Shown here one piece after another: positions 33,580 to 53,819 of a stretch of DNA of 64,000 nt. The position numbers were made by a program, and so were the translations under genes. The notes under the pieces are model-generated. The model was not told the origin of the DNA and searched no databases. It saw only the letters and a program-made list of their open reading frames with translations. Every line of letters begins with the position of its first letter. The first letter of the stretch is position 1. Source of the stretch: an uncultured virus (IMG/VR IMGVR_UViG_2645727884_000004) (lineage: Duplodnaviria > Heunggongvirae > Uroviricota > Caudoviricetes); IMG/VR virus record IMGVR_UViG_2645727884_000004, positions 1 through 64,000 of that record; one strand, 5' to 3'.

Positions 33580-34646
33580 TGAGCAAACGTCGCAGCCACC
33601 GCCGCCAGCAGCCGGTTACAGTCCAATCCGCCCAGGAAGGCGAGTTCATCCCGCGTCAGGGCGGCCGTGCCGAGGCCTTCACCTTCGGTGACCCGATGCC
33701 GGTGCTCGACGGCCGAGGCATCCTCGACTATCTCGAGTGCTGGTCGAACGGGCGGTGGTACGAGCCGCCGCTTTCCATGGAGGGGCTGGCCAAGGCGGTG
33801 GGGTCGAGCGTTTACCTGCAGTCGGGTCTGAAGTTCAAGCGCAACATGCTGGCCAAGACCTTCATCCCGCACCGCCTGCTCAGCCGGGCGACATTCGAGC
33901 AGTTCTCCCTGGACTGGCTGACATTCGGCTCGGCCTACCTCGAGCAGCCTCGTTCGCGCCTGGGTACGCGGATGCCGCTGCAGGCGCCGCTGGCCAAGTA
34001 CATGCGCCGCGGCACCGATCTGGAGACGTTCTACCAGGTGCGCAGTTGGAAGGATGAGCACGAATTCGAGAAGGGTAGCGTGATCCAGCTGCGCGAAGCC
34101 GACATCAACCAGGAAATCTACGGGGTGCCGGAGTGGTTCTGCGCCCTACAGAGCGCTTTGCTGAACGAGTCGGCCACCCTGTTCCGGCGCAAGTACTACA
34201 ACAACGGCAGCCACGCTGGATTCATCCTCTACATGACCGACGCCGCACAGAACGAGGAAGACATCGACGCGCTGCGCACGGCGCTGAAGACCGCGAAGGG
34301 GCCGGGCAATTTCCGCAACCTGTTCGTCTATGCGCCGAACGGGAAGAAGGAGGGGATCCAACTGATTCCGGTCAGCGAGGTCGCAGCCAAGGACGAGTTC
34401 GGCTCGATCAAGAACATCAGCCGCGACGACCAGCTCGCCGGTCTACGGGTCTATCCGCAAATGATGGGGGTGGTGCCGCAGAACGCTGGTGGGTTCGGGT
34501 CCATCAGTGATGCGGCGGCGGTCTGGGCCAGCCTGGAGCTGGAACCAATGCAGGCGCGCCTGCAGCAGGTCAATGAGCTGATCGGGGAAGAGGTTGTGAG
34601 GTTTAATGGTTTTTCTCTTCAGACTTCACGATGCAGCCCTTCATGA
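33579..34646 (+). CDS. Portal protein Q (PBSX family)
   Basis: AFTFGDP...YGVPE...FRRKYYNNG. Confidence 0.95.
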   Translation: MSKRRSHRRQQPVTVQSAQEGEFIPRQGGRAEAFTFGDPMPVLDGRGILDYLECWSNGRWYEPPLSMEGLAKAVGSSVYLQSGLKFKRNMLAKTFIPHRLLSRATFEQFSLDWLTFGSAYLEQPRSRLGTRMPLQAPLAKYMRRGTDLETFYQVRSWKDEHEFEKGSVIQLREADINQEIYGVPEWFCALQSALLNESATLFRRKYYNNGSHAGFILYMTDAAQNEEDIDALRTALKTAKGPGNFRNLFVYAPNGKKEGIQLIPVSEVAAKDEFGSIKNISRDDQLAGLRVYPQMMGVVPQNAGGFGSISDAAAVWASLELEPMQARLQQVNELIGEEVVRFNGFSLQTSRCSPS

Positions 34647-36753: not shown

Positions 36754-37063
36754 GTTGACCCCTCGGAAAAAGGTAATTTCGGTAATTTTGGGTTCGAAGA
36801 GGGCTGTAAGCCGCGTGGTTACTGGCTTTCAGCAATTACCTTGAAAGGTAATTTAGGGTAATTGGAAAGGTAATTTTTTTGTAAGCCATTGATTTATAAG
36901 GGATTTATAAATCGGCGAGCTTACCCAGCACAAAGGTAATTCGATTACCTCAAAATTACCCTATTATTACCTTTAAGAATCTTCTATAAGATATTGAATT
37001 TAAAGGATTAAATGGCTGTTCTAAAAACGAATTACCAAAATTACCAAATTTCGATGGGTCAAC
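36754..37063. repeat. GGTAAT/ATTACC array within 34-bp imperfect inverted repeats; candidate origin
   Basis: About a dozen hexamers in both orientations, AT-rich core, IR at 36754-36787 / 37030-37063. Confidence 0.7.
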
Positions 37064-37259
37064 ATAAAACGAGGGGTTGCCTGGCGGGGCGGGTATTGGA
37101 ACCTGGCTGTCTGCTGCCGCTCTGTCACCTGCGCTGGCTCTCTCTGCCACGTCTGCTAAGGCGCAGACGACCGCGCTAGCTCGGCTAGTCTTGTTACGTC
37201 GCTTGTTACGTAGAGGCCTGCTGCTGGCCTCCGAATGCGTCGTGAATCCTTGATCTAGA

Positions 37260-37304
37260 TGGTGCCGGCACCAGGAATCGAACCCGGGACCTACTGATTA
37301 CAAG
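37260..37304 (-). repeat. att core (tRNA-Thr 3' half) at junction of the two prophages
   Basis: 44/45 identical to 235-279. Confidence 0.92.
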
Positions 37305-37397
37305 TAATCCGCCCTTAATTGCAAAATCAACGGTTTACGACGTTTCTTTGTACGCGCTTGCTGTCGTTCAGGCCGCATTCTATGCGGGGTGTTTCGA

Positions 37398-38567
37398 TCA
37401 TTGTACGCCCCCGTTCGGGCCTCCCGAGGGGGCGACTATAGGTACGCTGAAGTCATAGACGTCCAGCATCGACTCGTCACGGTGGCCGCTGGCCTCCTGC
37501 TTTTCTCCCCGGGTGCCGGGGGTGTCAGTGATGCCGCGGCGTTTAAGGTCGTGCATGCCGAAGCGCTCCTCGGCGGTGATGATGTTCTTCTCCAGGGCCT
37601 GGGTGATGAACCGCTGCCAGGCGGTGTCTAGGCTCGACTTCCGGAGTGGCCCGCCGTGGGCTGCCACGATCAGCCGGCGCTGATCCGCTGCGATCGGTAC
37701 CGGCATGCGCTTCTTCTCCCACACGTCAGCACGGACTTTCTTTGCTGCATCCCAGGCCGCGCGTAGGCGCGGTGTCCAGCGGACGATGTTGTCGCGGCTG
37801 CCCTTGCGGCGGTTGGTCAGCACGCCTTCTTCTGTTTCGTTCGCGTCGGTGAGCGTGACTGTCTCGATGCCGCGCAGGCGGCACAAGTAGCTGATCTCCA
37901 TGACATACCAGAGGTAGGGCGCGCAGGCGCCTTTCTGGCCGCGCACCAGTTGGCCCTGCTGATAGGCGAACTGAATGAGCTGCGTCATAGCAGCCGGCGC
38001 AGGCAGCCGGCGGCGCTTTCGTTCTTTGGGTGCCTCGATGCCTTTGGCGACGTTCTCGTCGACAAAGCCCCGGTTCTTGCCCCACTGCAGCACCAGACGC
38101 AGGTAGCGCAGGGCGTGGGCCGCCTTGGATGGCGTGCCTTGCTCCGCGATCTTGTCGATCAGGCGCTGGACCAGGGGAGAGGTGAACTTGCGGACGGCCA
38201 GGTCGCCCAGCGTCTTGCCGGCGAGTTGGGTCGGTACGCCAAGCAGCACGTCGCGGCTGTAGCTGTAGTCTTCCTGGGTCTTCTGGCCGAGGCTGGTGAA
38301 CCTGATGCTGGCGTGATACTGCTCGCACAGGTACCGCAGGCTGTCACGGTCGATGCCCTGCAATTCTTCGACGATGCGGTGCAGTTCGGCCAGGGTGACC
38401 GTAGCGCCGCACAGGTTCTTGCGTACCCGGCGGCCGGCTTCGTTCATGCTCAACCGGTACCAGCAGCCGGCGCCGCGGTGGTCGAAATAGACGTCCTTCG
38501 GCAGAGAAGCTTGGTCTATGTGGGCAGGGATGTGAGGGTTTGCCTGGCGTTTTCTTCCGCGTCTCAT
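37398..38567 (-). CDS. int: Tyrosine recombinase / integrase
   Basis: Close paralogue of 391-1539 (LCRLRGIET, HDLKRRGITDT, SGHRDESMLDVYD). Confidence 0.92.
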   Translation of the reverse strand: MRRGRKRQANPHIPAHIDQASLPKDVYFDHRGAGCWYRLSMNEAGRRVRKNLCGATVTLAELHRIVEELQGIDRDSLRYLCEQYHASIRFTSLGQKTQEDYSYSRDVLLGVPTQLAGKTLGDLAVRKFTSPLVQRLIDKIAEQGTPSKAAHALRYLRLVLQWGKNRGFVDENVAKGIEAPKERKRRRLPAPAAMTQLIQFAYQQGQLVRGQKGACAPYLWYVMEISYLCRLRGIETVTLTDANETEEGVLTNRRKGSRDNIVRWTPRLRAAWDAAKKVRADVWEKKRMPVPIAADQRRLIVAAHGGPLRKSSLDTAWQRFITQALEKNIITAEERFGMHDLKRRGITDTPGTRGEKQEASGHRDESMLDVYDFSVPIVAPSGGPNGGVQ

Positions 38568-38779
38568 CTGAGTATGTCTGGTCCGTAGTGTTCCTGGTTG
38601 CCTGCGGCGAGGCCCGCGGCATGGTTGATCAGTTCTGTGGTGGTCCATGGGCCCTTGCGGCCGTGGAAAATCTTGATGCCCTGCTCACGCAGCACGCGCT
38701 CGACATCGGCGCGGCGCACGTAGCCGGTGACCTGCTGAAGATCCTCGAAGTCTAGGATGCCGGCGACATTGCTGCTCAT
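38564..38779 (-). CDS. Excisionase-like protein (DUF4224-like)
   Basis: FEDLQQVTGY...GPWTT; paralogue of 1536-1748. Confidence 0.7.
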   Translation of the reverse strand: MSSNVAGILDFEDLQQVTGYVRRADVERVLREQGIKIFHGRKGPWTTTELINHAAGLAAGNQEHYGPDILR

Positions 38780-38795
38780 GATCGCGTTCTCCTGC

Positions 38796-39254
38796 TCAGG
38801 CGGCGACTGGCGAGGGCCAGGCGCCGACAGCGTCATAGATGCGGGCGGCCTGGGCTTCGTCCAGGGTCACGCTGTCGGGAATTGCAATCCAGCCGGAGCT
38901 GACGATGTGCTTCGAATTACAGCTGGCGAGGTGTTCGCGGTAGAAGGCCTCTATCACGTCGGTTAGCTGGTCGGCGAGGTAGACGCCTTGTGGCGCCACC
39001 TCGGTGCTCTTGATGTAGCGCTTGCCGAACTGGTCGATGCACAGGGCGCTGATGTAGATGCACCAGGGATGGGTGAAGTCGCACACCGCGTCAACCATGG
39101 GGTGCGACTTAATCAGCCTGCCGGTTTTCCAGTTCACTAGGTGCTGGTCGCCGGCTGGATCGATGTTGATCACGGCGGCGTGGTTGGTGCGCACCAGTGC
39201 CCGGCAGTTGCGCTCGAGGCGGGCGCGCATGTTGTGGGGCTTGCGGGTGCTCAT
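38796..39254 (-). CDS. Conserved phage hypothetical protein
   Basis: 152 aa, coupled to neighbours. Confidence 0.7.
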   Translation of the reverse strand: MSTRKPHNMRARLERNCRALVRTNHAAVINIDPAGDQHLVNWKTGRLIKSHPMVDAVCDFTHPWCIYISALCIDQFGKRYIKSTEVAPQGVYLADQLTDVIEAFYREHLASCNSKHIVSSGWIAIPDSVTLDEAQAARIYDAVGAWPSPVAA

Positions 39255-40765
39255 TTCGCCCCCTTGAACATGCGGCGCTCGGTCTGGCCGACGAGCCAGG
39301 CCTTCGGCACCTCATTGCCGGGCGAGGCGGTGAGCAGTTCGGCAGCACGCCACAGCGCGTCACTGGTGCGAAGATCGGAATAGGCCATGATCGCTTCCCA
39401 GTGGCTTTCCGCCTCTTCGTCATCGAACTCGGACAGCAACTGAACGATGGCAAAGGTCTGGGCGTGCTCCGGGGCACCGGAGTCAAACATGCCGGCAGCG
39501 TTGAGCGAGTATTTCCTTCCTTCGGCCGCTACCAGAGCGGCGGCATTTAACGGCACGCTGTGCTGAGCCTGGTTGTCGATCAACGCGATGATGTGGTCAG
39601 GCATGGTCAGCGCCTCGTAACGCACCATCAGGTCCGAGGCCTCATCTCCGCTGAGTAGCGGGTTCTTGAGTGCGACAGCAATTCGGCGCAGTTCCGAGTG
39701 GTCGCCGGACTGAGTCTGGGTTACTGGGGCGTCGGTGCGGGCCCAACCAGCTGAGCACATGGCAGCTTCGTCCACTGCTTGGATGTCATTCGTAGAGCTT
39801 AGGAAAACCACAATTGCCTCGGGGTTGCACTGCGCCCGAATAGCGTCATGGAACCGCTTGCATTCGTGAACCTGCTCTTCGTTGAAGTCGCCGACCAGGG
39901 CGATTACCGAAGCATCTACGGGAACATCCTTGATGCGCGCGGCGACCAGGGCTTCGAGTGCTTTGACCCTGGCCAGGGCAGCGTCGCGCAGTTTCTGGAG
40001 CGCCCTGGATTCAGCTTCCCAGTGGTCGGCAGCGCCTCGCAGTTCCTTAATCTCCATTTCCATTCCAGCGCACTGATGGCGCGCAGCATCGCCTTTTGCG
40101 GCCGCGTCGTTTGCCATAGCTAGTTCGGCTTCCAACTCCGCGCACCTGGCCAGGGCGGCGTCGCGCTCTTGCTCCAGTTGGTCGATACCAACAGACAGGT
40201 AGCCGTCCATCATGCCCATCATGCGGTGTTCGAGGGCGTCGGCGCGCTCGTTGGCGGCGTCTCGCTCTTTTTCGCAGCGCCCCCAGCCGTTCGTTGCGCT
40301 ACCGAGCTTGAAGATCAGCTCGGTGTTGCGCTCTCGCTGAGATTGAAGCTCCGCCCGCAGTGCTTCGACTTCGGCCTGGGCGACTTTCAGTTGATCCTCC
40401 AAGCGCTTGGCATAGCCGCGAATGCCTTGCACGGTCCAGCCACCATCGATGGCGTCTTGCGGCAGCCCTTCGCAGATACGCTCGAACTGGCGCAGGCGCA
40501 CGGCGATTTCGTTCTTGTGGTCTCGCTCCTGTTCGGCCAGGTATTGCCAGTGCTCGGCAGCCGGCCATGGGGACGGAACAACCACTGCGTCGACCGTAAT
40601 TCCCTCTGGCATCGGCAGGGCATTCAGGTCGGCCGCGTGCTTGTCGGCGTCTTCGCGGCTGAATGCTGCGTACAGTTCGTCCGGCCCTTGGGCATGTACA
40701 GCCCACAGTTCCGGCCGCTCCGCCTCGGCGATGGGCAGGCTGTCTTGTTGGGTCTTCTGGCTCAT
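39251..40765 (-). CDS. Mosaic coiled-coil protein (Ead/Ea22-like)
   Basis: 504 aa, repeated (E/L)RDAA(LAR) heptads, DAIDGGWT motif. Confidence 0.6.
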   Translation of the reverse strand: MSQKTQQDSLPIAEAERPELWAVHAQGPDELYAAFSREDADKHAADLNALPMPEGITVDAVVVPSPWPAAEHWQYLAEQERDHKNEIAVRLRQFERICEGLPQDAIDGGWTVQGIRGYAKRLEDQLKVAQAEVEALRAELQSQRERNTELIFKLGSATNGWGRCEKERDAANERADALEHRMMGMMDGYLSVGIDQLEQERDAALARCAELEAELAMANDAAAKGDAARHQCAGMEMEIKELRGAADHWEAESRALQKLRDAALARVKALEALVAARIKDVPVDASVIALVGDFNEEQVHECKRFHDAIRAQCNPEAIVVFLSSTNDIQAVDEAAMCSAGWARTDAPVTQTQSGDHSELRRIAVALKNPLLSGDEASDLMVRYEALTMPDHIIALIDNQAQHSVPLNAAALVAAEGRKYSLNAAGMFDSGAPEHAQTFAIVQLLSEFDDEEAESHWEAIMAYSDLRTSDALWRAAELLTASPGNEVPKAWLVGQTERRMFKGAK

Positions 40766-41940
40766 GCTGCCTCCTTGAACGTCTTGCGCAGGTTTGCGGA
40801 GACAGAGCGGCCGCGCTTCTGCACGATCCTGGCCAGCCTCCGGCGGGCGTTGTGGCTGTGGCTGGCCTGGTCCAGCAGGCCGAAGTAGCTGTTGGCGGTT
40901 TCGCGCAGCTGTTCCCCCGGCGCGGCGCTTACCTGGCGCAGGGCAGTTTCCACGGTGCGCGGGCGTGTGACGCGGCGGTGCGGAAGGATCACCTGGCCAA
41001 CGAAATCGATCCCGCGGGCGATGGGCTGGAGCACGGTCTTCGCAGGGTTGAGTCGGGCATGTAACGTGTCGGCCAGGAATGCCTCGATCTGGTTGTGCCA
41101 GGCATTCAGCTGTTGGGGAGACTCGGCCAGCAGAACGAAGTCATCGACGTAACGGATGTAGTGCTTCACGCGCAGCTGGTGTTTCACGAACTGGTCCAGA
41201 GCGTCGAGGTGCACGTTGGCGAAGAACTGTGACGACAGGTTGCCGATAGGCAGGCCCAGGTACGCCGGCTGGGCGGTGAGCCGCTTGTGCTGCGGCACGC
41301 GATTCAGCAAGCGGGTGGGGCTGCGGGTTTCGTAGTTGGTGCGTGGGTCGTGCCAGAGGATCTGTAGGGCAAGTGCCCGCCAGGTTGGCTCGGGGATGCG
41401 CGCGATCAGTTGCTGCTCGAGCACCCGCTTGTCGAGGGAGATGAAGAAATTGGACAGGTCGCACTTCAGGTAGAAGGCGCGGCGTTTCCAGTTGCGGGTG
41501 ATGCTGCGCACCTTCTTCTCCAGGCGCTGGGCGCCATAGAGTGTGCCGCGGCCCTTGATGCAGGCACAGCTATCAACAATGAAGGAGCGCTCGATGCGCG
41601 GGCCGATGTGGTTGTACAGCAGGTGGTGGACGATTCTGTCTCTGAAGTCGGCGGCCCACACCTCGCGGTGCTTCGGGTGGGTCACGACAAAGCAGATGGA
41701 GGCGCCGGGTTGGTAGGCGCCGGTGTTCAGCTCATGGTGGAGTTGCATGATGTTGCGCTCCAGGTTGAACTCGAATGCAAGGGCCGACTTGCTGTTGCGC
41801 TTGCTGCGCCGGCAGTCGTAATAGGCCTGCATGAGTGCCTCGATAGAAAATCCAGCATGGCCGCCGGTGTTGCCGTTCGATGCTGCGGACGGCGAAAGCG
41901 GGCCGTGCGTTGTCCTTGTCGTCGTTGTTCTGGTTGCCAT
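40762..41940 (-). CDS. DGR reverse transcriptase (start uncertain: 41940 or 41832)
   Basis: FRDRIVHH, GLPIGNLSSQFFAN, YIRYVDDF, GIDFVG; no maturase/endonuclease domain. Confidence 0.93.
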   Translation of the reverse strand: MATRTTTTRTTHGPLSPSAASNGNTGGHAGFSIEALMQAYYDCRRSKRNSKSALAFEFNLERNIMQLHHELNTGAYQPGASICFVVTHPKHREVWAADFRDRIVHHLLYNHIGPRIERSFIVDSCACIKGRGTLYGAQRLEKKVRSITRNWKRRAFYLKCDLSNFFISLDKRVLEQQLIARIPEPTWRALALQILWHDPRTNYETRSPTRLLNRVPQHKRLTAQPAYLGLPIGNLSSQFFANVHLDALDQFVKHQLRVKHYIRYVDDFVLLAESPQQLNAWHNQIEAFLADTLHARLNPAKTVLQPIARGIDFVGQVILPHRRVTRPRTVETALRQVSAAPGEQLRETANSYFGLLDQASHSHNARRRLARIVQKRGRSVSANLRKTFKEAA

Positions 41941-41982
41941 CGTCGAAGTTCTGGATCCACGCGTTGTTCGGGCCGTTCTGCG
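41883..41982 (-). repeat. DGR template repeat (TR)
   Basis: 100 bp, 29 adenines on the coding strand, eight AAC codons in the VR frame. Confidence 0.95.
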
Positions 41983-42154
41983 CCAGGTCGTGCTATCTAC
42001 GTCGCGCTGCCGAAGGCCGAGGCCGATCAGTGGCGAGACTGCGCAGGGCCTGCCGGGACGATGCCCGGCGGTTCCCCTGGTGCGCATGACGGTGGCCTTG
42101 TGAGCCAGCGGCACGACCAGAATCAAAATCGCGCTGGTGTGAGGGCCGTGGCGC

Positions 42155-42517
42155 TCACACGGCTGGCGATGCGGCGGCATTTCGTTTCCACCCAGTGGCC
42201 TGCCGGCCTATGTCGTCGGTGATTTCAATGGCTCGGCCGTGCTGGGCTCCGCTGAGCAGCCCGAGGTCGACCGAGAGGCGCAGCATCAGTTCGACGACCT
42301 GGATGCGTTCCAGGATCAGCTGAATGTGCGCTACCCGTTCCTGGCCGCCGGCCGTGTTGGCGCGGAAGATCAGGATCGACACGTCGATGCACTCGTTGAG
42401 CACCTTTTCCCCGAGGGTGCGCTTGAAGTCGCGGCGCCACCCTTTGGAGAGGTCGGCTACAAGCCGGGCCAGTTCTCCGGCGCGTTTGTAGATCGGCAGG
42501 TGTTGGGCGATGGCCAT
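42155..42517 (-). CDS. avd: Accessory variability determinant (four-helix bundle)
   Basis: LPIYK...LG......I.RAN...IGRQATGW; between target and TR. Confidence 0.88.
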   Translation of the reverse strand: MAIAQHLPIYKRAGELARLVADLSKGWRRDFKRTLGEKVLNECIDVSILIFRANTAGGQERVAHIQLILERIQVVELMLRLSVDLGLLSGAQHGRAIEITDDIGRQATGWKRNAAASPAV

Positions 42518-42531
42518 GCTGGAAAACTCGC

Positions 42532-43194
42532 TTACTGCGCGCTGCGCGCGCAGTTGTTCAGAGCATTAAGTGGTGAAGGGATGAGGATTCTGCGGACGGC
42601 GAAAGCGGGCCGTGCGTTGCCCTTGACGCCGTTGCTCTGGGTGCCATCGTCGAAGTACTGGAGCCACGCGTAGTTCGGGCCGTACTGCGTGCTGGTGAGG
42701 CACCAGCCCTTGCCCTGAAACTGTTCAGGGATGTGTGCCCAGCACAGGTACGCCTCTGCGCGGGACGGCAGGTAGAGATCCGTGTGTCCTTCAGCTTCCT
42801 GCTCGGTGGCCCATAGCGCAGCAGGGTGATCGATATCATGAGCGGTCAACGCACGGGTGTTGGCCAGGCCGTCGCGGATGTGATCTGCGCCGGTGACCCG
42901 GTAGCCGCGGCCGCCGTAGGTGATCGAGTCGATCTGTGCATGCTTCGGGGCGATAAGGTGGTAATCCGGTTCGCCATTTTCGCCACGCATCACGCCGACG
43001 TAAGTGCCGCCCTGGCCGTGCCAGTGCTGGCCGATAGCGGGCGGAGTGAGGTGGGCATCGAGAGTGATCAAGTTGCCCTGGATGCTGCCGCTGGGTATCA
43101 GGCCTGTTTCCTGTTCCAAGGTGTGGCGGGCGAGCAGGGCGTTGGTGGTGATGAGCGTGGTGTCGCCGATTGCCAGAGTGATTTCGTTCTGCAT
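42532..43194 (-). CDS. DGR target protein 1 (DUF1566/CLec-like)
   Basis: DGLANT, LYLPSRAE, C-terminal VR ending AVRR. Confidence 0.88.
   Translation of the reverse strand: MQNEITLAIGDTTLITTNALLARHTLEQETGLIPSGSIQGNLITLDAHLTPPAIGQHWHGQGGTYVGVMRGENGEPDYHLIAPKHAQIDSITYGGRGYRVTGADHIRDGLANTRALTAHDIDHPAALWATEQEAEGHTDLYLPSRAEAYLCWAHIPEQFQGKGWCLTSTQYGPNYAWLQYFDDGTQSNGVKGNARPAFAVRRILIPSPLNALNNCARSAQ
42534..42554. other. DGR target-recognition hairpin after VR1
   Basis: ACTGCGCGC-TGC-GCGCGCAGT, 36 nt from VR1 3' end. Confidence 0.75.
42590..42689 (-). repeat. Variable repeat VR1
   Basis: 9 mismatches to TR, all at TR adenines. Confidence 0.95.
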
Positions 43195-43221
43195 GGTCTA
43201 GTCCTCAAAAATTTGAGCCGA

Positions 43222-43240
43222 CCGCGCGCGGGGCGCGCGG
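43222..43240. other. DGR target-recognition hairpin after VR2
   Basis: CCGCGCGC-GGG-GCGCGCGG, 36 nt from VR2 3' end. Confidence 0.75.
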
Positions 43241-43256
43241 CAGGAAAGCGAAGTGG

Positions 43257-43871
43257 TCAAGGGGTGACTTTGATTCTGCGGACGGCGAAAGCGGGCCGTG
43301 CGAAGTCCTTGCCGCCGTCGTACTGGTAGCCACCGACGAAGTACTGGACCCACGCGTCGTCCGGGCCGTTCTGCGTACTGGTCCAATAACTGCGGGCCTC
43401 CAGCGCCTCCTCGCCGCCATCCTGGAAGATGGCAATGGGGCTCTGCCCGGGCGCCACGGCGGTGTACGGGTAGCCCGGCGGCAAGCTGCTGGGGTTGTCG
43501 CCATCGCGGAAGCTGCACCAGTTCTCATCGGTGGTGGGCTTGCAGACCCGATAGATCATTTCGTTCTCGTCGCGGGCGCCGAGATACCAGTCGTTGTGGC
43601 CGCCAATCGAAAGGCCGAGCGCCCAGGCGGCCAGTTTCGAGCCGGCTTCGGCCATGGCCTTGGTGTTGGCCAGGCCGTCCACGAAGCTATCGGCGTCCGG
43701 GATCAGCAGTCCGTACTCACCTCAGTGGATGGGAGCGTGGAAGCCCAGTGCTTTGGGTGCGCGGATGAGGGCGAAGCGCTCGCCCTGAATCTGGTACTGG
43801 CCCATGTAGAAGCCGCCCTCGAACGGGGTGCCGAGGACGGTTGGCAGGGCGATGCTGGTCAGTGCGTTCAT
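43257..43871 (-). pseudogene. DGR target protein 2 (DUF1566/CLec-like), in-frame TGA at codon 50
   Basis: MNALTSIALP..GTPFEGGFY..PIH*GEYG..DGLANT..DWYL..YWTSTQ; stop at 43722-43724; in-frame GTG at 43682. Confidence 0.85.
43276..43375 (-). repeat. Variable repeat VR2
   Basis: 13 mismatches to TR, all at TR adenines. Confidence 0.95.
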
Positions 43872-43882
43872 GTTTCATTTCC

Positions 43883-44425
43883 TCAGGCATTCGCGGTGCG
43901 ATGGGTGATGGAGAGCAGATCCATCAGGCGGTAGTGGAAGCGGGTGCTGGCTTCTTCGATGGACCAGGGCTTGATGCGTGCCGCCAAGGGCTGGATACCG
44001 TTCAGGCAGGCCCACTCGGCGGGGTCGGCAGGCATCAGGTCGCGGCGCTCGGTGGCCAGCGCCACCAGGTCGGCGTGCTTGACTGACTCCGGCAGTTCCT
44101 TGTCCAGGTCGAACCGGGTGCAGATGGCTTCCCAGATGTGGTCCTCGACTTCGCGGTAGGCATGTATCTGCTTCTTGAGCGGCCGGACCATGTCACCGAC
44201 GTAGGACTCGGTGGCGTCATGCAGCAGGGCGGACAGGCAGTCGGTGCTCGGCACCAGGTCTGCCACCAGGTAGCTGTGCTGGGCAACGCTGTAGTGCTGG
44301 GACACGTGGCCGTTGAACCGGCAGCAGTGGGCCAGGGCGTGGGAGATATCCCGCGGATCGATCATTTCCGGCTTGGGCTCGAATAGGTCGAAGCGCTTGC
44401 CGGTGTAGGTGAGAATCCAGGTCAT
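43883..44425 (-). CDS. HD-superfamily phosphohydrolase (YfdR/YfbR-like)
   Basis: DISHAL..CRFNGH..YSVAQHS..LLHDA.E.Y.GD. Confidence 0.88.
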   Translation of the reverse strand: MTWILTYTGKRFDLFEPKPEMIDPRDISHALAHCCRFNGHVSQHYSVAQHSYLVADLVPSTDCLSALLHDATESYVGDMVRPLKKQIHAYREVEDHIWEAICTRFDLDKELPESVKHADLVALATERRDLMPADPAEWACLNGIQPLAARIKPWSIEEASTRFHYRLMDLLSITHRTANA

Positions 44426-44428
44426 GGG

Positions 44429-45169
44429 TCACCTCACATGCACATCGGCGCGGTGTCGCCGGTGTAGTCGAGGTCCACCGCCTCCCAGGCGGAGAGTCTG
44501 TCTGTCGACTTGGCGTGCGGCAGGTTGGCCCCCAGGTGCCTCGGACTCCTCGGCCTTGACCAAGGCGTAGGTGACGGCCTCGCGGATCGTCCTGGTGCCC
44601 CGGAAGGTATCGCCGACCTCGAAGCTCAAGGTGAAGGTGCCGAAGTCTGCGGAGCCGGTTGCATGCTGCTCGAGGAAGTCAAACAGCTTCGTATCAAGCG
44701 GCGGGGGCACTTCAGCGGCGAGTGCGGCCGGGATGCGCTGGAGCAACGCGCGGATTGCTTCCTGCGCGGCGTGGGCCTCTTCAGCCTTGTCGTTAGCGTG
44801 CAGGCGGGCGAACACGTCTCCGGCCAGGCGGAGCAGCTTCGCGGAGGTGGTGAGGGTGTCTCCGTCGCCTGGCTGAAACTGAGCGTACTGGGTACGGGCG
44901 TTGTTCCTGTCCAGGATCTGGTCGGCCTGCAGAAGCAGTGCTGCACGATCGTTGATGTGTTTCGCCTGCATCGCGCCCACGTCGGCCTGGAGAGCTCGAA
45001 TGTGGACCTGCTGGTCTTCGATGCGGAGTTCGCAGGCTCTGGATGCATCGTCGTGGCCGGAGTTGTAGCCATTGGCATAGGCGGCGCGAGAGGCGCGGAG
45101 TGCGAAGAACAGAACCGCGGCGCAGGCGAGAGCCAGTCCGCCGATGATGAACTGATAGGTGATAGGCAT
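44429..45169 (-). CDS. Hypothetical protein, N-terminal TM + coiled coil
   Basis: 246 aa; C-terminus may be frameshifted at C5 run ~44529-44533. Confidence 0.65.
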   Translation of the reverse strand: MPITYQFIIGGLALACAAVLFFALRASRAAYANGYNSGHDDASRACELRIEDQQVHIRALQADVGAMQAKHINDRAALLLQADQILDRNNARTQYAQFQPGDGDTLTTSAKLLRLAGDVFARLHANDKAEEAHAAQEAIRALLQRIPAALAAEVPPPLDTKLFDFLEQHATGSADFGTFTLSFEVGDTFRGTRTIREAVTYALVKAEESEAPGGQPAARQVDRQTLRLGGGGPRLHRRHRADVHVR

Positions 45170-45235
45170 GTGCTGTGTCCTCGTATAGCCCGCCGCCGGT
45201 GTAGAGGCCGGCGGCGGGGTGCTGCGTGGTAGGAG

Positions 45236-46045
45236 TTATTCGCCGACCTTGAAGGTGCCGATGGTCAGATCGGTGGAGGTGATGTCGGTAGCGAGCATGT
45301 CCTTGAACTCCTGCGCGATTTCCTCTCGCACCTGCTGTTCAGCTACCCAGCGAGGCTTGATTACCGGTTTGGCTTCGCCAGTCAGCACTGACAGGCGCAG
45401 GACGAAACTGCGCAGCGGCAGGCCGTCGTAGGGCAGGCAGGTGAAGATCAGCGAGGCCGGCAGCGTGTCCTGGCTGGCAGCCTCGATCTGGTCCATGGCG
45501 CTGCGCGACGCATTGAAGTTGCCCTCAACGCTGGTGCGCTCGCTGGAAGCCTTGATGGTGATGTTGCGTACTGCCGCGATGGCCTGGACCAGGGGCATTT
45601 CCTGATCATCCGGGGAGATCGCCTTCAGGAAGTCGCGCCAGTCTTCCATCCACTCAGCCAGGTCCTTCTGCGACAGACGCTGGCCAGCGATGTCTTGCAG
45701 AGCGGCATAAGCGGCCGTGGGCTGCAGCGCCAAGGTGGCGATATCGTCGGCGTGCCCGGCCAGTTCGGTATCACCCAGGTTGAAGATCACCCGGCAGGAC
45801 ATGCTGTCCTTGTCGACGAAGCCGCGAGCCTCTTCTCCGGCGCGCTCGTTCACGTAGGTTACGAAATCTGCGAGCGAGGAGGTGGTCAGGGCACCACGGA
45901 AACGGTTGCGGTGCGCTTCCAGCCGTTCCAGGCTTTGGAGCTTGAAGCCCTCCGGGACAACCGCCATGGCGCCGGCCGAGCCGGTGATACGGGTGCCTGC
46001 GGCAGCGATGGCGTTGGCGAGGACCAGTTGCAGTGCTTCTTTCAT
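45236..46045 (-). CDS. YfdQ / DUF2303 family protein
   Basis: RFRGALTTSS..DF...FNLG..GHAD...LAEW.EDW. Confidence 0.85.
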   Translation of the reverse strand: MKEALQLVLANAIAAAGTRITGSAGAMAVVPEGFKLQSLERLEAHRNRFRGALTTSSLADFVTYVNERAGEEARGFVDKDSMSCRVIFNLGDTELAGHADDIATLALQPTAAYAALQDIAGQRLSQKDLAEWMEDWRDFLKAISPDDQEMPLVQAIAAVRNITIKASSERTSVEGNFNASRSAMDQIEAASQDTLPASLIFTCLPYDGLPLRSFVLRLSVLTGEAKPVIKPRWVAEQQVREEIAQEFKDMLATDITSTDLTIGTFKVGE

Positions 46046-46090
46046 GTGCTGTGTTCCTTGATGTAGTAGAGGTTGTGGGGTGTGGACGGG

Positions 46091-46438
46091 TTAAGCGTCC
46101 TGGGGGACGACCGGTGCCTGCTGGCGGTTGAACAACTGGTCGGTCGGGTTGGTCTGGAATAGCTCCAGGCCGTTAGGGGTGACGTACATCGGGGTGTCCA
46201 GCGCGGTGTCTTCGCTGCGACTGCCGCGCTTGGTGGGCACCTTGTAGTCGAGTTTGTGGTTGATCTTTACCTGGTTGGATTCGCCGATCTGACTGAGCTC
46301 CAAGGTGATGACGACTTTGCCTTTCTTGCCGAACTCGACCACGCCGGAGCCGACGTCGGAGAGGGCCGTGCCGATCTGGTTGGCGAAGACGCCCGCATTC
46401 AGCGAGCTGAAGAAGTCGTTCACGTCGGTCTTTTTCAT
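46091..46438 (-). CDS. YfdP-like hypothetical protein
   Basis: L.AGVF...KGKV.I...PT.RG...E...TPMYV; precedes YfdQ. Confidence 0.7.
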   Translation of the reverse strand: MKKTDVNDFFSSLNAGVFANQIGTALSDVGSGVVEFGKKGKVVITLELSQIGESNQVKINHKLDYKVPTKRGSRSEDTALDTPMYVTPNGLELFQTNPTDQLFNRQQAPVVPQDA

Positions 46439-46655
46439 GTGCTGTGCCTCGTTGGTGGTGGTTGGTATTCCCCAGGACGCTCTCGTCGAAAGCGCCCTGG
46501 GGAAGGCCCGTCTCCAGGCCTTCCGGTTTCACATACGCCGCCATATGTGACTGCTGGTCGAGCTCGGCCAGTTGGGCTGACCTGCCCCGGTTGGGATGTC
46601 TACATGGCTGCCACTCCTCCCTGTCGTTTCACCCGGTTGCGCCGGGGCGCGTCGA

Positions 46656-46892
46656 TCAGGCTGCCTTGACGCCCTTAGCGTCGAGGAACTCGGCCAGGTC
46701 CGTCAGGTACACCAGCGGCTCCTCCAGTCGGGACGTCGTGAGCTTGCGGGTGACCAGTGCCACCTCCCCGCTCTTGATCAGAGCCCGCAGGCGTTTATCG
46801 GTCTTCAGGTGTGGGAAGTACGCTGCCCGGACCTGGGCGAGGGTGAGCGTTGCTGTACCCCACTGCTGGTAGAGCTGCTCAAGTGTCGTCAT
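46656..46892 (-). CDS. Pyocin activator PrtN-family DNA-binding protein
   Basis: T...L..Q.G...L..VR..YF.HL.....VYLTDLAEFLD. Confidence 0.7.
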   Translation of the reverse strand: MTTLEQLYQQWGTATLTLAQVRAAYFPHLKTDKRLRALIKSGEVALVTRKLTTSRLEEPLVYLTDLAEFLDAKGVKAA

Positions 46893-47257
46893 AGCGCCTC
46901 CCCGCGCCCCGCTGGTAGGCGAGCCGACACCAAGGCGACTAGGCCGTTGACTGTCTTGCCGAGGCCGCTAGCGGCGATGTTGCCCGCCGCGTCGGTGACT
47001 ATGGCGCCGTAAGGGCGCACTTCGTCGTTGGTGAGCGTGACGTGGGGTAGCCAGCCGCGCGGGGTGATGGCCACCAAGGCGGTATAGAGGAGCGCCAGTT
47101 GAGTTACTTCCTGGGGCTGGGTGTCCAGGCGGTCGATGCACTCTGCCGCGGCGGCCTGTAGAGCGTCGGCCGGGTAGGCAGTCGGTGCCGCGAAGTGCAT
47201 GCCGACCAGCTTGAGCGTGCCGACGGCGTCGGCGATGGGGTTCGGTTTCGGAGTCAT
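46889..47257 (-). CDS. Hypothetical protein
   Basis: 122 aa, 4-nt overlaps on both sides. Confidence 0.65.
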   Translation of the reverse strand: MTPKPNPIADAVGTLKLVGMHFAAPTAYPADALQAAAAECIDRLDTQPQEVTQLALLYTALVAITPRGWLPHVTLTNDEVRPYGAIVTDAAGNIAASGLGKTVNGLVALVSARLPAGRGEAL

Positions 47258-47538
47258 GCCACGTCGTCCTTGTGCTGGGTGACGGTGATGGACACGCCGA
47301 GGCGCTTGGCCAGGTAGGCGATTCCAGCCTCGGTGACCATCACCACGCTGTAGTGGGTGTACTGGCCCAGTCGCGGGTTCCAGCGCGAGCGCGGATCCAT
47401 GAACAGGTGGCCCTGGCCGATGTGCTTGGCCGCCAGGGTGCCGTCCTGGTTCAGGTCCTTGTGCTGCCGCAGGTGGTTGCGCAGGTCCCGTTCGCTGACG
47501 CCGAGGGCGGCAGCTGCATGGCGGATATCCCGGTTCAT
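47254..47538 (-). CDS. Antirepressor KilAC-like domain protein
   Basis: AAALGVSE..LR..LR...VTEAGIAYL. Confidence 0.65.
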   Translation of the reverse strand: MNRDIRHAAAALGVSERDLRNHLRQHKDLNQDGTLAAKHIGQGHLFMDPRSRWNPRLGQYTHYSVVMVTEAGIAYLAKRLGVSITVTQHKDDVA

Positions 47539-47549
47539 GGCGGGCCCTC

Positions 47550-48119
47550 TCAGGCTGCGTTCTTTGCGCGGAGTTGGAGCAGTGCCATCACTTCGTCCAG
47601 CGTCTGGTAGAGATCATTCAGACTGCCGTCGTTGCTGATGAACAGGTCGTGTGCCCCCGCTGTGATGCCCGACTCGCTACTGTGCGCGGCGACTTCGGCG
47701 GTATCCTGTCGATGCAGATGGACGACTACGCCGCCCTTGGCGCGGATCCAGTCCGCCTCGTTGTCGAAGCGCACGTCGCTGATGACGAACCCCTGGGCCT
47801 GAGGCATCGCCTCCAGGTGGTTGGATAGGTTCATGTCGGCCAGCATCAGCCAGAGCTGCGGATGCACTAAGTTGCGGCCCCACTCAGTGCCCAGCAGTTG
47901 CATCAGTTCGCGCGGCGACTTGCCCAGCCAAGGCAGCGGCTGTTCCTTCGCCGGACCCTCCAGGGCGGACCCGGGCAAGTTCAGCATGTCGAGCAGGGCC
48001 AGCTTCAGCGGTGAGGCTAGGGCATAGACCAGCAGGCCGAACTGGGCGGCGAGGTAGTTCGCCGCAGTGTCTTTGCCGGAGCGAGCGCGGCCAGTGAGGC
48101 CGATCAGGAAGGGCTTCAT
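47550..48119 (-). CDS. Deoxynucleotide monophosphate kinase
   Basis: GLTGRARSGKDT, SPRELMQLLGTEWGR, ISDVRF.NE, HSSE. Confidence 0.9.
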   Translation of the reverse strand: MKPFLIGLTGRARSGKDTAANYLAAQFGLLVYALASPLKLALLDMLNLPGSALEGPAKEQPLPWLGKSPRELMQLLGTEWGRNLVHPQLWLMLADMNLSNHLEAMPQAQGFVISDVRFDNEADWIRAKGGVVVHLHRQDTAEVAAHSSESGITAGAHDLFISNDGSLNDLYQTLDEVMALLQLRAKNAA

Positions 48120-48424
48120 GCCGCGGCCTCCATGCTGAGGTAGCGCTGGGTGAAGGTCAGGAGCATCGACAGGTTCTGCCGGGATTCGTCCTCCGTGAGG
48201 TTCCTGCGACGGCCACGGGTGTCGGCGCCGATGAAGGCGTACTCGTAGGCATGGGCAACTCGGGCTCCCAACGGCGTGGTGTCGTCGGCCCGGTGGATTG
48301 AAACGGAGACGTCCGCGTCGATGCAGGACAGATAGAAGGTGGCCTTCCACTTGCCCTGGCTGTCGATCAGCAGGCAGGTGGAGAGGATCTGCAGCAGTAG
48401 TTCCTCAATGGTGGGCTTGTTCAT
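48116..48424 (-). CDS. Hypothetical protein
   Basis: MNKPT start, coupled overlaps. Confidence 0.6.
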   Translation of the reverse strand: MNKPTIEELLLQILSTCLLIDSQGKWKATFYLSCIDADVSVSIHRADDTTPLGARVAHAYEYAFIGADTRGRRRNLTEDESRQNLSMLLTFTQRYLSMEAAA

Positions 48425-48630
48425 GCAGCACCTCCCCACGGGCCGCTGTCGGCATCCGTGCTGGGGGCGACAGGGCGCGGCTGGTAGAGACAGGCGCGCT
48501 GGGAGGTGCTGATGATCACCAGCAGCCCGGTGCGGGCCTGGATGGCCTCAACAGTGGCGGGGCTGGTGGCCGCTGCCGGGTGTAGGTACACCGGGCAGCG
48601 GGCTTTGGGCGTGTGCTGTGCCGATTGCAT
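48421..48630 (-). CDS. Hypothetical protein (first gene of left early operon)
   Basis: VYLHPAA.TSP..V.AIQ..TGL; GGAG RBS. Confidence 0.6.
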   Translation of the reverse strand: MQSAQHTPKARCPVYLHPAAATSPATVEAIQARTGLLVIISTSQRACLYQPRPVAPSTDADSGPWGGAA

Positions 48631-48670
48631 GTCTCGTACTCCAAGGTAGAGGGTGGGTACGAAACACAGA

Positions 48671-48684
48671 TTAGCTACAGCTAA
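48671..48684. promoter_or_regulatory. Operator OL candidate
   Basis: TTAGC-N4-GCTAA palindrome, with further half sites to 48710. Confidence 0.65.
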
Positions 48685-48717
48685 TTACATTAGCAATACA
48701 GAATGCTAAATTTTTTG

Positions 48718-49404
48718 TCAGGCGGAGGGAATAAAGCGTGAGGACTTGACTATCGCTCCAACGAAATGGACATGGACGATCTCGTCGTCTTCCAGGAAGA
48801 CGGGAGATTCGTTGGGGTTCACGCTGTCGAAGCGCCAAGTGCCCTCTCGGCGGTAGCTGTATTCCTTGATCATTGCGCGGCCATCAACTGTCTTAACCAG
48901 CACTTCGTCGCCTGGCGCAAAGGAGCGGTTTGGCTCGATCATCACATACTCTTTGTGCTTGATTCTCGGGTGCATGCTATGCCCGACAACCTGCAGCGCA
49001 TAGGCATTGGGATCGGTGCTGCTGATTAAGATGCTGCCGTCGCCATGGCCCACTGGATAGTCTAGGGCCTCGAAGTATCCATCTACACCCAACTTAGCTT
49101 TCCCTACTACTGGGACGCTTCCTTTCAGCACCGGTAGGGCTTCCTCTTCCAGGTTGCTCACCGGTAGGTCTTTCCCTTGAGCCCGATGCACGTCCGGGAA
49201 TTGGGTTGGCATCACAAGAGAGTTCGGTGCTAGGCCAATCTTTGCCTCTAGGTTTCGTGCGGCTTTCTCGCCCATCGGGCGATGGCCATTCAGCAGTTGC
49301 GAGATGTAGGAAGCGTCAAGGTTGTGCTTCTCAGCAAAATCCTTGGTCTTCTGATCGCCGATGAGGGCGCCAAGGGCGCGGATTCTGAGCTTGTTGATGT
49401 CCAT
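48718..49404 (-). CDS. cI: CI repressor (HTH + S24 peptidase)
   Basis: SYISQLLNGHR..GEK.AR; VGHSMHP; IKEY. Confidence 0.9.
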   Translation of the reverse strand: MDINKLRIRALGALIGDQKTKDFAEKHNLDASYISQLLNGHRPMGEKAARNLEAKIGLAPNSLVMPTQFPDVHRAQGKDLPVSNLEEEALPVLKGSVPVVGKAKLGVDGYFEALDYPVGHGDGSILISSTDPNAYALQVVGHSMHPRIKHKEYVMIEPNRSFAPGDEVLVKTVDGRAMIKEYSYRREGTWRFDSVNPNESPVFLEDDEIVHVHFVGAIVKSSRFIPSA

Positions 49405-49472
49405 GGGCCAAGGTTCGCCAAGTGTTAGCGTTTTGTAAATTGATGGCTGCTAATCCCTTGTTGCTATATTCG

Positions 49473-49486
49473 TTAGCGGACGCTAA
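49473..49486. promoter_or_regulatory. Operator OR candidate
   Basis: TTAGC-N4-GCTAA, with degenerate copies 49424-49454. Confidence 0.65.
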
Positions 49487-49506
49487 TCTTTGCGGCAGGA
49501 GGGACC

Positions 49507-49737
49507 ATGAAACTACTCGACTACCTCAAGCCCCTGAGTAAAGACGCAAAGGCAGCGCTTGCGGCCCGTTGTGGGACGACTGTGGGGCAACTGACCCAGG
49601 TGGCTTACGGGCATCGTCGGGCGAATGCCGCCCTGGCAATTGATCTCGATAGGGAGACTGGCGGTGTTGTGGCATGCGAAGAGACCAGGCCTGACATCGA
49701 CTGGGCCTATCTCCGCGGGAAGCAGCGAGCGGCATGA
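49507..49737 (+). CDS. cro: Cro-like (YdaS-type) regulator
   Basis: LAARCGTTVGQL.QVAYG...T.G.V...RPDIDW. Confidence 0.85.
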   Translation: MKLLDYLKPLSKDAKAALAARCGTTVGQLTQVAYGHRRANAALAIDLDRETGGVVACEETRPDIDWAYLRGKQRAA

Positions 49738-49985
49738 AATATTCATCGGATGCAGGGGAGCGTATGGACATATTCGCGGATAACTTCGGTGTGGCCCCCG
49801 GCCTGGAGGTGGTGATGCGCCACCTCGATGACGGCCTGGTCATGGTCACGGCACGGCACAAAGGGGAGGCCTTCGAAAGCTATCGCGCCGTCCCGGTGGA
49901 GAAGGCCTTGGAAGTAGCTGGCTACCTCATTCGAGGCTCTCAACCACCACGCGCCCTGTTTTGTCCCTGTACACCTGCTCGCTGA
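49734..49985 (+). CDS. Hypothetical protein
   Basis: ATGA overlap with cro. Confidence 0.45.
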   Translation: MKYSSDAGERMDIFADNFGVAPGLEVVMRHLDDGLVMVTARHKGEAFESYRAVPVEKALEVAGYLIRGSQPPRALFCPCTPAR

Positions 49986-50130
49986 ATTCGACCTGGACCA
50001 GTTCGGGGCCGCGCTGTTTTAGGCGGTAGAACTCTAGGCCGCTGAAGTCGACTTCGTAGTGATCGGGGTAGACGGCGAGATGCTCCCGGAGCATTCCGAC
50101 GGTGATTGTCTGAGGCTTCTTGGAGGGCAT
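49927..50130 (-). CDS. Small counter-oriented hypothetical protein
   Basis: AAGGA RBS; MPSKKPQTITVGMLREHL... Confidence 0.6.
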   Translation of the reverse strand: MPSKKPQTITVGMLREHLAVYPDHYEVDFSGLEFYRLKQRGPELVQVEFSEQVYRDKTGRVVVESLE

Positions 50131-50336
50131 ACGCAGTTCCTTGCGAAAAGAAGAGGGAGGTGAATACAGAAAAGGTTGGCCGGCGCGGGCCTCTACACCC
50201 GCGCCGGCCGGGTGCCGGACAGGGCCTCTACACCCTGGGCCCGGCGTACGACGACACAGCACATTGCATCGGTCGTGGTCATAGAGTAGGGCGAGCCCCG
50301 CTCGATGGCTACACCGTAAAAGGAGTATTTACGGTT

Positions 50337-50837: not shown

Positions 50838-51072
50838 CATCCTCGATCGCGCCTCCGAACTGGAGGAGTTCCATTTGCAGGCGGCGCTCGCTTCTCGACC
50901 CCGTCCGGCGCCGGCGTACAGTATCAGCGCGACGATCTGCGATGACTGCGGCAGCGAGATCCCACCAGCGCGCCGCCTGGCGGTGCCTGGGTGTGATTGC
51001 TGCGTTGAGTGCCAGCAGCGCAGGGAGGTGCGTCGTGGATACCGCTTGCAGACTAAGTCGGGGGCGGTATGA
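50830..51072 (+). CDS. TraR/DksA C4 zinc-finger protein
   Basis: MGDILDRA; CDDCGSEIPPARRLAVPGCDCCVECQ. Confidence 0.88.
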   Translation: MGDILDRASELEEFHLQAALASRPRPAPAYSISATICDDCGSEIPPARRLAVPGCDCCVECQQRREVRRGYRLQTKSGAV

Positions 51073-53808: not shown

Positions 53809-53819
53809 ATCTGCCCGGA

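Follow-up and report, generated by a model that had tools for sequence, protein, structure and literature searches.

A canonical two-target diversity-generating retroelement between cI and int in a Pseudomonas aeruginosa prophage

A complete cassette with two target genes

The stretch of DNA analyzed here, which we call the window, comprises 64,000 nucleotides (nt), positions 1 to 64,000 of the 79,195-bp provirus record IMGVR_UViG_2645727884_000004. On its minus strand, a Pseudomonas aeruginosa prophage carries a genuine, canonical two-target diversity-generating retroelement (DGR). This DGR is already catalogued, its mechanism is ordinary, and its existence is not new. The cassette is complete and runs, in minus-strand order, through target gene 2 (T2), target gene 1 (T1), avd (accessory variability determinant), an RT-15 RNA (Rfam RF03018), the template repeat (TR), a 47-nt spacer, and the gene for the reverse transcriptase (RT). 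T2 occupies 43257 to 43871, with its ATG at 43871 and its stop at 43257; it matches phrog_4245 and is interrupted by a TGA codon. T1, at 42532 to 43194, is an open reading frame (ORF) of 220 amino acids (aa). Each target carries a variable repeat (VR) at its 3′ end, VR2 at 43276 to 43375 in T2 and VR1 at 42590 to 42689 in T1. Folding finds a GC-rich hairpin with a perfect 8-bp stem and a 3-nt loop 3′ of each VR, at 43222 to 43240 in the gap between T2 and T1 and at 42535 to 42553, where it overlaps the last T1 codons. The avd gene (42155 to 42517, 120 aa) sits between the targets and TR (41883 to 41982), as a sequence-only reading of this DNA had claimed, and the RT gene (40762 to 41832) encodes 356 aa.

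A repeat search of positions 40000 to 45000 returned a single family of direct repeats with three copies, at 41879 to 41989, 42586 to 42696, and 43272 to 43382, at spacings of 707 and 686 nt. We recomputed the register on the minus strand. The alignment is ungapped, VR1 differs from TR at 9 positions and VR2 at 13, and all 22 differences fall at TR adenines. This is what the sequence-only reading had reported, and the translations of TR, VR1, and VR2 that it gave were also correct on re-translation. With 29 adenines among the 100 nt of TR, the probability that chance would place the 9 and 13 mismatches at A alone is about 5e-14. In the reading frame of the VRs, TR contains 8 AAC codons, and 29 of its 30 adenines (counted in a 104-nt register) lie at codon positions 1 and 2. 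Just 3′ of the A-variable part, TR has a C (position 41882) and both VRs have an A, a marker of the IMH/IMH* type (initiation of mutagenic homing) that is invariant in 33 of 33 TR/VR pairs of related elements. TR is not followed by a GC-rich hairpin comparable to those of the VRs; the fold there is no better than that of shuffled sequences (z −0.31).

The RT matches Pfam RVT_1 (2.5e-13) and phrog_1423 (5.7e-110). It contains IGNLSSQ at residue 196 and YVDD at residue 228, both of which had been noticed before; motifs of the form [I/L]GxxxSQ and YxDD are diagnostic of DGR-type RTs. Against NCBIfam, the protein gave weak, sub-threshold matches to group II, retron, and Drt RTs, and no DGR-RT model matched. 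Its start, an ATG at 41832 about 47 nt from TR, agrees with the annotated coding sequence in the related phage LPPA56, and the PHROG match begins near the same point. A 472-aa ORF starting at 42180 was considered as the RT and rejected; it is merely the RT frame extended upstream through TR. Avd matches phrog_3206, “Avd protein of DGR,” over its full length (6.3e-26).

The RT-15 RNA lies at 41981 to 42171, directly 5′ of TR, overlaps the last 17 nt of avd, and ends at the TR start. The cmscan match is full length and scores 172.2 bits (E 7e-43), where the gathering score is 82. RT-15 was found upstream of RT and beside avd in 10 of 10 DGR-bearing related loci that were scanned (L006, L011, L016 to L018, L022, and L024 to L027) and in 0 of 2 DGR-less loci. 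Since it always takes this position, we regard RT-15 as a structured part of the DGR RNA 5′ of TR. A literature search found no paper on RT-15.

If the cassette follows the paradigm of phage BPP-1, a transcript with the RT-15 RNA and TR would be reverse-transcribed by RT together with Avd. Reverse transcription would misincorporate at random opposite template adenines, and the cDNA would then replace VR1 and VR2, each of which would be marked by its IMH-type 3′ end and GC hairpin.

The DGR has been active in nature

A search with T1 identified 20 viral loci. The same cassette is present in 15 of them (L006 to L020), with T1 68 to 95% and RT 74 to 100% identical; the sequence of L020 ends before T2. 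A single-protein search of genome contigs gave 8 loci, one of them close. Phage LPPA56 (GenBank OR188718.1; 42,384 bp, circular) has the same gene order as the window from cI to int. All of its cassette genes are annotated “hypothetical protein,” and our literature search found no paper naming this phage.

The cassettes of the window and LPPA56 (40762 to 43900) are 99.1% identical, and TR, RT, and avd are the same in both. There are 29 differences in 3139 bp, and 27 of them, 14 in VR1 and 13 in VR2, are at adenine-templated sites; the other two are at 43072 and at the T2 stop (43722). Over 12.65 kb of alignment (99.75% identical), 27 of 32 differences fall inside the 200 nt of the two VRs. The same holds for IMG/VR contig L007, where 27 of the 31 differences over 12.94 kb are inside the VRs.

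We then examined the lineage as a whole, taking the window, LPPA56, and the 15 related loci together (17 elements, 33 TR/VR pairs). The window, LPPA56, and 7 of the 15 loci (L006 to L010, L012, and L013) share one and the same TR sequence. Across the lineage, 424 of 979 TR-A positions are changed, against 3 sporadic changes at other bases plus the invariant IMH marker. A comparison of VR alleles across related prophages had been suggested from the sequence alone, and it does reveal A-specific variation. TR substitutions that distinguish L011, L017/L020, and L018/L019 recur in both VRs of the same element, which shows that both VRs receive TR information. Distinct alleles number 15 in 17 for VR1 and 15 in 16 for VR2, and stop codons are absent (0/33). 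The A of three CAG (Gln) codons is changed in 0 of 33 pairs, and that of a Lys codon almost never. The unchanged Gln and nearly unchanged Lys codons show that the products are under selection. These data show that the DGR has been recently and repeatedly active in nature, with TR information passed to both VRs.

Selection is also evident outside the repeats. The ratio of nonsynonymous to synonymous substitution rates (dN/dS) was calculated for 12 loci; L010, L019, and L020 were left out as near-duplicates or truncated. For the scaffold outside the VR, it is 0.227 in T1 (57 of 66 pairs with dS > 0.1) and 0.223 in T2 (61 of 66), and inside the VR it is about 1.9. The scaffolds of T1 and T2 are under purifying selection, and the variable residues are at the C-terminal end.

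Target proteins with a C-type-lectin-like fold

T1 and T2 are small paralogues with about 32% identity, and each is predicted by modeling to be a stand-alone C-type-lectin-like protein of the DUF1566/Lcl_C domain. The sequence-only reading had described them as paralogues of ~205 to 220 aa. This stands for T1, at 220 aa, and for the relationship between the two, but it overlooked that the T2 ORF is broken in this copy by an in-frame TGA at codon 50 (43724 to 43722). Elsewhere T2 is a 204-aa stand-alone protein of the DUF1566/Lcl_C C-type-lectin fold. An intact ORF of 203 to 204 aa is present in LPPA56 (204 aa, with a Trp codon where the window has TGA) and in 14 of 14 related loci where T2 could be delimited, and all 17 other sequences in the T2 alignment have Trp in the codon-50 column. 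The base at 43722 also differs from that of the window in contigs of three RNA-library runs (X15, X16, and X18). A second change lies nearby: compared with LPPA56, L007, and the contig of X15, the window has a 1-nt indel at position 44529 that alters the last ~30 codons of the neighboring 246-aa gene (44429 to 45169). Two disruptive changes private to this copy within 1 kb suggest that the copy is decaying or that the assembly contains errors. In this copy, then, either only T1 is functional or T2 carries an assembly error.

Homologues of T1 form 98 clusters, mostly from Pseudomonas, and those with names are called “DUF1566 domain-containing protein” or “Lcl C-terminal domain-containing protein”; the closest cluster alone has 158 member sequences. 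Pfam Lcl_C (PF07603) does not match T1 itself at E 1e-3, and it matches 39 of 58 aligned homologues, the best at 5.3e-12. On the T2 fragment, the match is at E 1.5e-5 and 25.7 bits, under the cut-off of 34.9.

The structure model of T1 (predicted local distance difference test score [pLDDT] 87, predicted template modeling score [pTM] 0.73) has an N-terminal beta-hairpin and helix, a disordered linker, and a lectin-like domain. Its best counterpart is the C-terminal domain of Legionella Lcl (8q4e; Z 14.0, root mean square deviation 3.5 Å, 120 of 131 residues aligned, 22% identity), ahead of the Bacteroides ovatus fimbrial tip protein 4eps (Z 12.5), the C-terminal domain of Bdellovibrio Bd2740 (Z 10.8), and snaclec and other C-type-lectin-like domain proteins (Z ~9). 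The T2 model (pLDDT 77) has the same core, and its top Foldseek match in the PDB is again 8q4e (E 7e-4). Of the check by profiles and structure proposed with the sequence-only reading, for a DUF1566 or C-type-lectin fold, the structural part gives such a fold for both proteins. In the BFVD database, the fold occurs in small stand-alone phage proteins of 169 to 228 aa, including a 186-aa protein of Pseudomonas phage D3.

Each protein has a part of its own. In T1, the hairpin and helix (residues 1 to 30, pLDDT ~76 to 81) belong to a conserved module of about 45 aa; a search of the ESM Atlas with the N-terminal 50 residues gave no usable match. T2 has a specific insertion of about 40 residues (CKPTTDENWC...NPSSLPPGYPYT), residues 112 to 151 of the model, that is highly conserved in sequence and modeled with pLDDT below 50; window positions 43538 to 43512 encode T2 residues 110 to 119. 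Two Cys residues in the insertion are conserved, in 15 of 16 and 16 of 16 sequences, and it could be a disulfide-bonded or partner-binding loop.

The targets had been described as having no obvious signal, and this agrees with what we found by a crude script, as distinct from SignalP. In the first 35 residues, a lipobox or twin-arginine translocation (TAT) motif was found in 0 of 54 T1-type and 0 of 16 T2-type sequences, and a hydrophobic 19-mer above threshold was found in 1 of 54 and 0 of 16, respectively.

Setting in the prophage and in related phages

The host element is a lambda-like siphovirus prophage that occupies 37.25 to 64 kb of the window and runs on to 79.2 kb of the record. The minus strand encodes, in order, cI (48718 to 49404), an OL-like (left) operator, a deoxynucleoside monophosphate (dNMP) kinase, xis (an xis-like gene at 46656 to 46892), phrog_204/210 genes, a dNMP phosphatase, T2, T1, avd, TR, RT, genes p504 and p152, and int (37398 to 38648). 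On the plus strand are a cro-like gene (49507 to 49737), a cII-like gene, and genes for primase, terminase, portal, protease, and capsid; past the window follow the major tail protein, tape measure, a J-like 1183-aa protein, a 623-aa tail protein, endolysin, and spanin. The late genes, from terminase to tail, thus begin at 55.3 kb on the plus strand and extend past the window, and the targets are not in the tail or late module.

The immediate neighbor upstream is the gene for a YfbR-like dNMP phosphatase (43883 to 44425; phrog_318, 1.1e-71), and the T2 ATG is 11 nt past its stop. This enzyme and the dNMP kinase (47550 to 48350; phrog_139, 6.9e-56) have opposite actions on the nucleotide pool and flank the recombination/xis block of the early-left operon. 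When the phage map is drawn as a circle, about 6 kb separate the cassette from the last tail gene, which is on the other strand; the lysis genes, a Doc-like gene, the attachment site (att), and int lie in between. The Doc-like toxin gene (L005 14521 to 15018; G000 78521 to 79018; phrog_577, 1.4e-43) is at the far end of the prophage, past the lysis genes. The 504-aa coiled-coil gene p504, downstream of RT, was considered as part of the cassette and rejected: it is full length only in L007 and LPPA56, with fragments in L008 to L010 and nothing in the other related loci.

The sequence-only reading placed the targets in a cI-controlled left operon. The location holds, between xis and int, downstream of cI, and on the strand opposite to the late genes; cI control is something we infer from two palindromes. 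The exact sequence TTAGC-N4-GCTAA occurs twice in 64 kb, where 0.74 matches would be expected by chance at ≤1 mismatch. The copy at 48671 to 48684, also returned as an inverted-repeat pair, lies between the cI stop, 34 nt away, and the first leftward ORF; the copy at 49473 to 49486 is in the cI-cro gap. The pair would fit OL/OR-type (left and right operator) control of the left operon by cI. A scan of 37000 to 50000 found 4 terminator-like sites against 9.8 expected, which is uninformative.

Six RNA-library runs span this stretch, and we compared contigs from four (X15 to X18, from three studies) over 37001 to 57000. They cover 29, 30, 29, and 19 of 30 bins with flat depth and include int, both targets, cI, and primase. 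DNA may be present in such libraries, and the contigs show no level, strand, or ends, so they have no bearing on whether expression is early or lysogenic. The breaks that the contigs show inside VR1 may be an effect of the TR/VR repeats.

Other Pseudomonas phages have related genes in similar places. In phage phPA-G (Detrevirus), the genes for a 194-aa target, Avd, and RT lie downstream of the gene for a CI-like repressor, and an exonuclease gene is their neighbor. Cruim01 has two targets of 203 to 205 aa, Avd, RT-15, and RT beside genes for a single-stranded-DNA-binding protein (SSB) and an endonuclease. In the accessible parts of the papers describing these two phages, we found no mention of RT, Avd, or DGR. 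In the early regions of Medea1 (L028 5986 to 7294) and vB_Pae_U7 (L029 5387 to 6582), a T2-like and a T1-like DUF1566 gene lie next to each other among those for Erf, exonuclease, and SSB. The complete records of both phages contain no DGR RT anywhere. The two genes retain relic VR-like 3′ ends, with 82% identity over 114 nt in the Medea1 pair and 45 identical nt in the U7 pair.

Comparison with described DGRs

The DGR belongs to the Pseudomonas lineage catalogued as “TG-TG-AVD-TR-RT / CLec2 / DUF1566.” Of the 9 Pseudomonas DGRs in Table S1 of Wu et al. 2018 (PMC5758913), 8 (rows 35 to 40, 47, and 49) are of the type TG-TG-AVD-TR-RT and are coded B1, CLec2, and DUF1566 (d1). The window has the features of this architecture (B1, CLec2, category d1): the gene order, adjacent DUF1566-only targets, C-terminal VRs, and 29 to 30 adenines in TR. 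According to the portion of that study we could access, category d (DUF1566/CLec2) makes up 14% of DGRs, and about half of these targets are short, with DUF1566 only.

One entry in the table, DGR no. 47 from P. aeruginosa 213BR, stands out. Its spacings, 686 nt from VR2 to VR1 and 707 nt from VR1 to TR, are identical to those of the window; its second target is 663 nt and its avd 360 nt long, and its GC stem-loops are scored “strong, strong.” It also shares the gene order, the two adjacent C-terminal VRs, and the short DUF1566-only targets. Judged by these sequence features, no. 47 is very probably the same element in another strain. The table gives its location as “chromosome” and leaves the phage-homologue column empty, and its entry records no prophage or early-operon setting and no function (PMC5758913). 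Our literature search found no paper treating this Pseudomonas phage DGR lineage.

The BPP-1 DGR (mtd-avd-TR-brt), as summarized in the same source, is alike in the order target-avd-TR-RT, in A-specific mutagenesis, in having a C-terminal VR on a C-type-lectin fold, and in its IMH and GC hairpin (PMC5758913). The two elements differ in their targets and their setting. BPP-1 has one target, Mtd, a tail-fiber tip protein encoded in the tail module, whereas the window has two DUF1566 proteins of 204 to 220 aa in an early-left operon, with a 190-nt RT-15 RNA 5′ of TR. Mtd is reportedly 381 aa long.

The exemplar of category d, LdtA of the Legionella pneumophila DGR, likewise has a CLec2-type VR on a DUF1566-like domain, as far as described in PMC5758913, and the closest solved fold to T1 and T2 is the C-terminal domain of Legionella Lcl. 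LdtA is given there as a surface lipoprotein with an export signal, in contrast to the T1 and T2 families with their lipobox/TAT counts of 0/54 and 0/16. Further likenesses appear in the available text on the Bacuni phages (PMC8143477) and Toutatisvirus (bioRxiv 10.1101/2024.10.15.618418). In these, one TR feeds two VRs on lectin-like targets, nearly all differences between near-identical phages are in the VRs, and some relatives keep both targets without a DGR, as Medea1 and U7 do. Their targets are read as receptor-binding or head-decoration proteins and lie beside tail genes or far from RT; unlike them, the targets in the window are both adjacent to each other and inside the early operon.

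In the part of the survey by Benler et al. 2018 available to us, only 5 of 92 targets of phage DGRs are similar to Mtd, and the others have no known function. In the accessible text of Roux et al. 2021, machine learning assigns most viral targets to the tail proteins, and nonstructural ones are mentioned only in passing.

What the targets may do

We tentatively favor the reading that T1 and T2 are early-operon, hypervariable binders, intracellular or at least non-virion, rather than late-made tail components, and give it a little less than an even chance. The leftward transcript under cI control would supply them once the phage infects or is induced. The arguments are from genome organization and sequence. 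The targets are among the minus-strand genes from cI to int, whereas the genes from terminase to tail are on the plus strand; placement in the early region recurs in phPA-G and Cruim01; Medea1 and U7, which have no DGR, keep their DUF1566 genes among early genes; and the script found next to no export signals. In addition, among 895 candidates there was no longer, fused T1 homologue at E ≤ 1e-5, which is weak evidence. The sequence-only reading went further and suggested intracellular anti-defense or host-takeover factors. That was overstated, since it is one of several readings.

A number of observations weigh against early, non-virion binders. The case for cI control consists of the two operator-like palindromes, and a promoter scan of 37000 to 50000, uninformative in itself, found 0 sigma-70-like sites where 2.6 were expected. 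The Avd matches in Pfam (bAvd, 2.9e-6, 28 bits) and NCBIfam (DivGenRetAVD, 1.3e-8, 35 bits) are under their cut-offs of 40 and 80. In the sources as far as accessible, the phage DGR targets that have experimental backing are all receptor-binding proteins (BPP-1 Mtd, PMC5758913; Bacuni, PMC8143477).

This leads to the strongest rival, in our view somewhat unlikely: T1 and T2 would be virion-associated accessory adhesins that dock on the tail tip, fibers, or capsid, with the DGR switching tropism as in BPP-1 and the genes simply encoded away from the late operon. Much of the contrary evidence belongs here. Besides the BPP-1 paradigm itself, VR differences in the DUF1566 targets of Bacuni phages correlate with host range, according to the available text of PMC8143477. 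The three best structural relatives, Lcl, the pilus tip BACOVA_04982, and Bd2740, are extracellular adhesive fiber tips, and in BFVD the DUF1566 fold is also found at the C terminus of long tail-fiber-like phage proteins (the phrog_4245 profile has a length of 583). The conserved Cys pair of T2 could form a disulfide and would then fit an extracellular protein, and the conserved ~45-aa N-terminal module of T1 could serve for docking. The distance of only ~6 kb from the last tail gene on the circular map would suit such a role as well. Against adhesins, the target genes and the late operon are on opposite strands, and the target genes lie among those for nucleotide metabolism, recombination, and xis, an early placement that is kept in several Pseudomonas phage groups. 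T2 is a lectin domain only and has no anchor, the search at E ≤ 1e-5 gave no fused tail-fiber homologue (weak, as noted), and the phage has its own J-like 1183-aa protein and 623-aa tail protein.

Returning to early-made, non-virion binders, we also considered a bolder version that seems improbable to us. T1 and T2 would be a conserved pair of cytoplasmic, DGR-diversified lectin-fold binders, an early “antibody-like” repertoire neutralizing variable host proteins, such as those of defense systems. By analogy with the snaclec lectin pairs, whose fold they resemble, the two proteins would possibly form a two-chain heteromer. This idea is compatible with the conserved early position in several Pseudomonas phage groups, with the fact that DGR-less phages have kept both genes, with the absence of export signals, and with purifying selection on the two scaffolds. 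If it is true, DGR variation would broaden host range at the intracellular stage rather than at adsorption.

A further rival, which we rate as distinctly improbable, is that the targets serve the lysogen as prophage-expressed hypervariable sensors or blockers that would, for example, recognize proteins of superinfecting phages, by analogy with the intracellular sensors that cellular DGRs diversify. The targets are without export signals, and intracellular targets have been described for cellular DGRs in the accessible part of PMC10907252; the RNA-library contigs, which come from cultures, cover the locus, although coverage is not proof of transcription. The proteins, at 204 to 220 aa, have no effector domain, and they are not followed by a conserved partner gene, p504 being absent from most of the related loci. 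Repression of the leftward operon by cI, if it occurs, should moreover keep it silent in lysogens. The probability left over by the favored reading, the adhesins, and a role in the lysogen goes to some other role.

Finally, the view that the repeats are a fossil or chance similarity, in an inactive element whose VR differences are ordinary divergence of paralogues, could appeal to the broken T2 of this copy and to the persistence of gene pairs with relic VR-like ends in Medea1 and U7, but it is almost certainly wrong and is already refuted for the lineage by the LPPA56 and 17-element comparisons, given the minute chance probability of A-only mismatches, the crowding of differences from near-identical LPPA56 into the VRs, the copying of TR changes into both VRs of diverged lineages, and the intact RT, Avd, RT-15 RNA, and hairpins.

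The element offers a tractable handle on a gap, since for most DGR targets in phages no function is known (Benler et al. 2018, in the portion accessible) and surveys assume roles in tails or adhesion (Roux et al. 2021, likewise). Its targets are in the early operon of a completely sequenced phage whose host is easy to handle in the laboratory, and a natural allele series and DGR-less relatives can serve as controls. Locating the targets in the virion or inside the cell would decide whether DGRs of temperate phages serve only tropism.

A second prophage in tandem

Positions 1 to 37250 of the window hold a second prophage, a P2-like myovirus, in tandem with the DGR phage. Its genes include integrase (391 to 1539), primase (6707 to 8854), tape measure (14665 to 17424), sheath (18498 to 19742), tail fiber (20218 to 22035), capsid (29790 to 30806), terminase (31798 to 33579), and portal (33579 to 34646). 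The integrases of the two phages match the same PHROGs (phrog_14425 and phrog_1), and window positions 154 to 279 match 126 nt of L007, at its int-proximal end, with 99% identity. Together, these two observations suggest that an att site is repeated and that the two phages occupy a single attachment locus. The P2-like prophage also carries, at 1944 to 5218, a gene resembling 3′-phosphoadenosine-5′-phosphosulfate (PAPS) reductase (phrog_12882, 1.9e-263) immediately followed by a gene for a 681-aa DNA-methyltransferase-like protein, a pair that is possibly a DNA-modification or defense-related moron.

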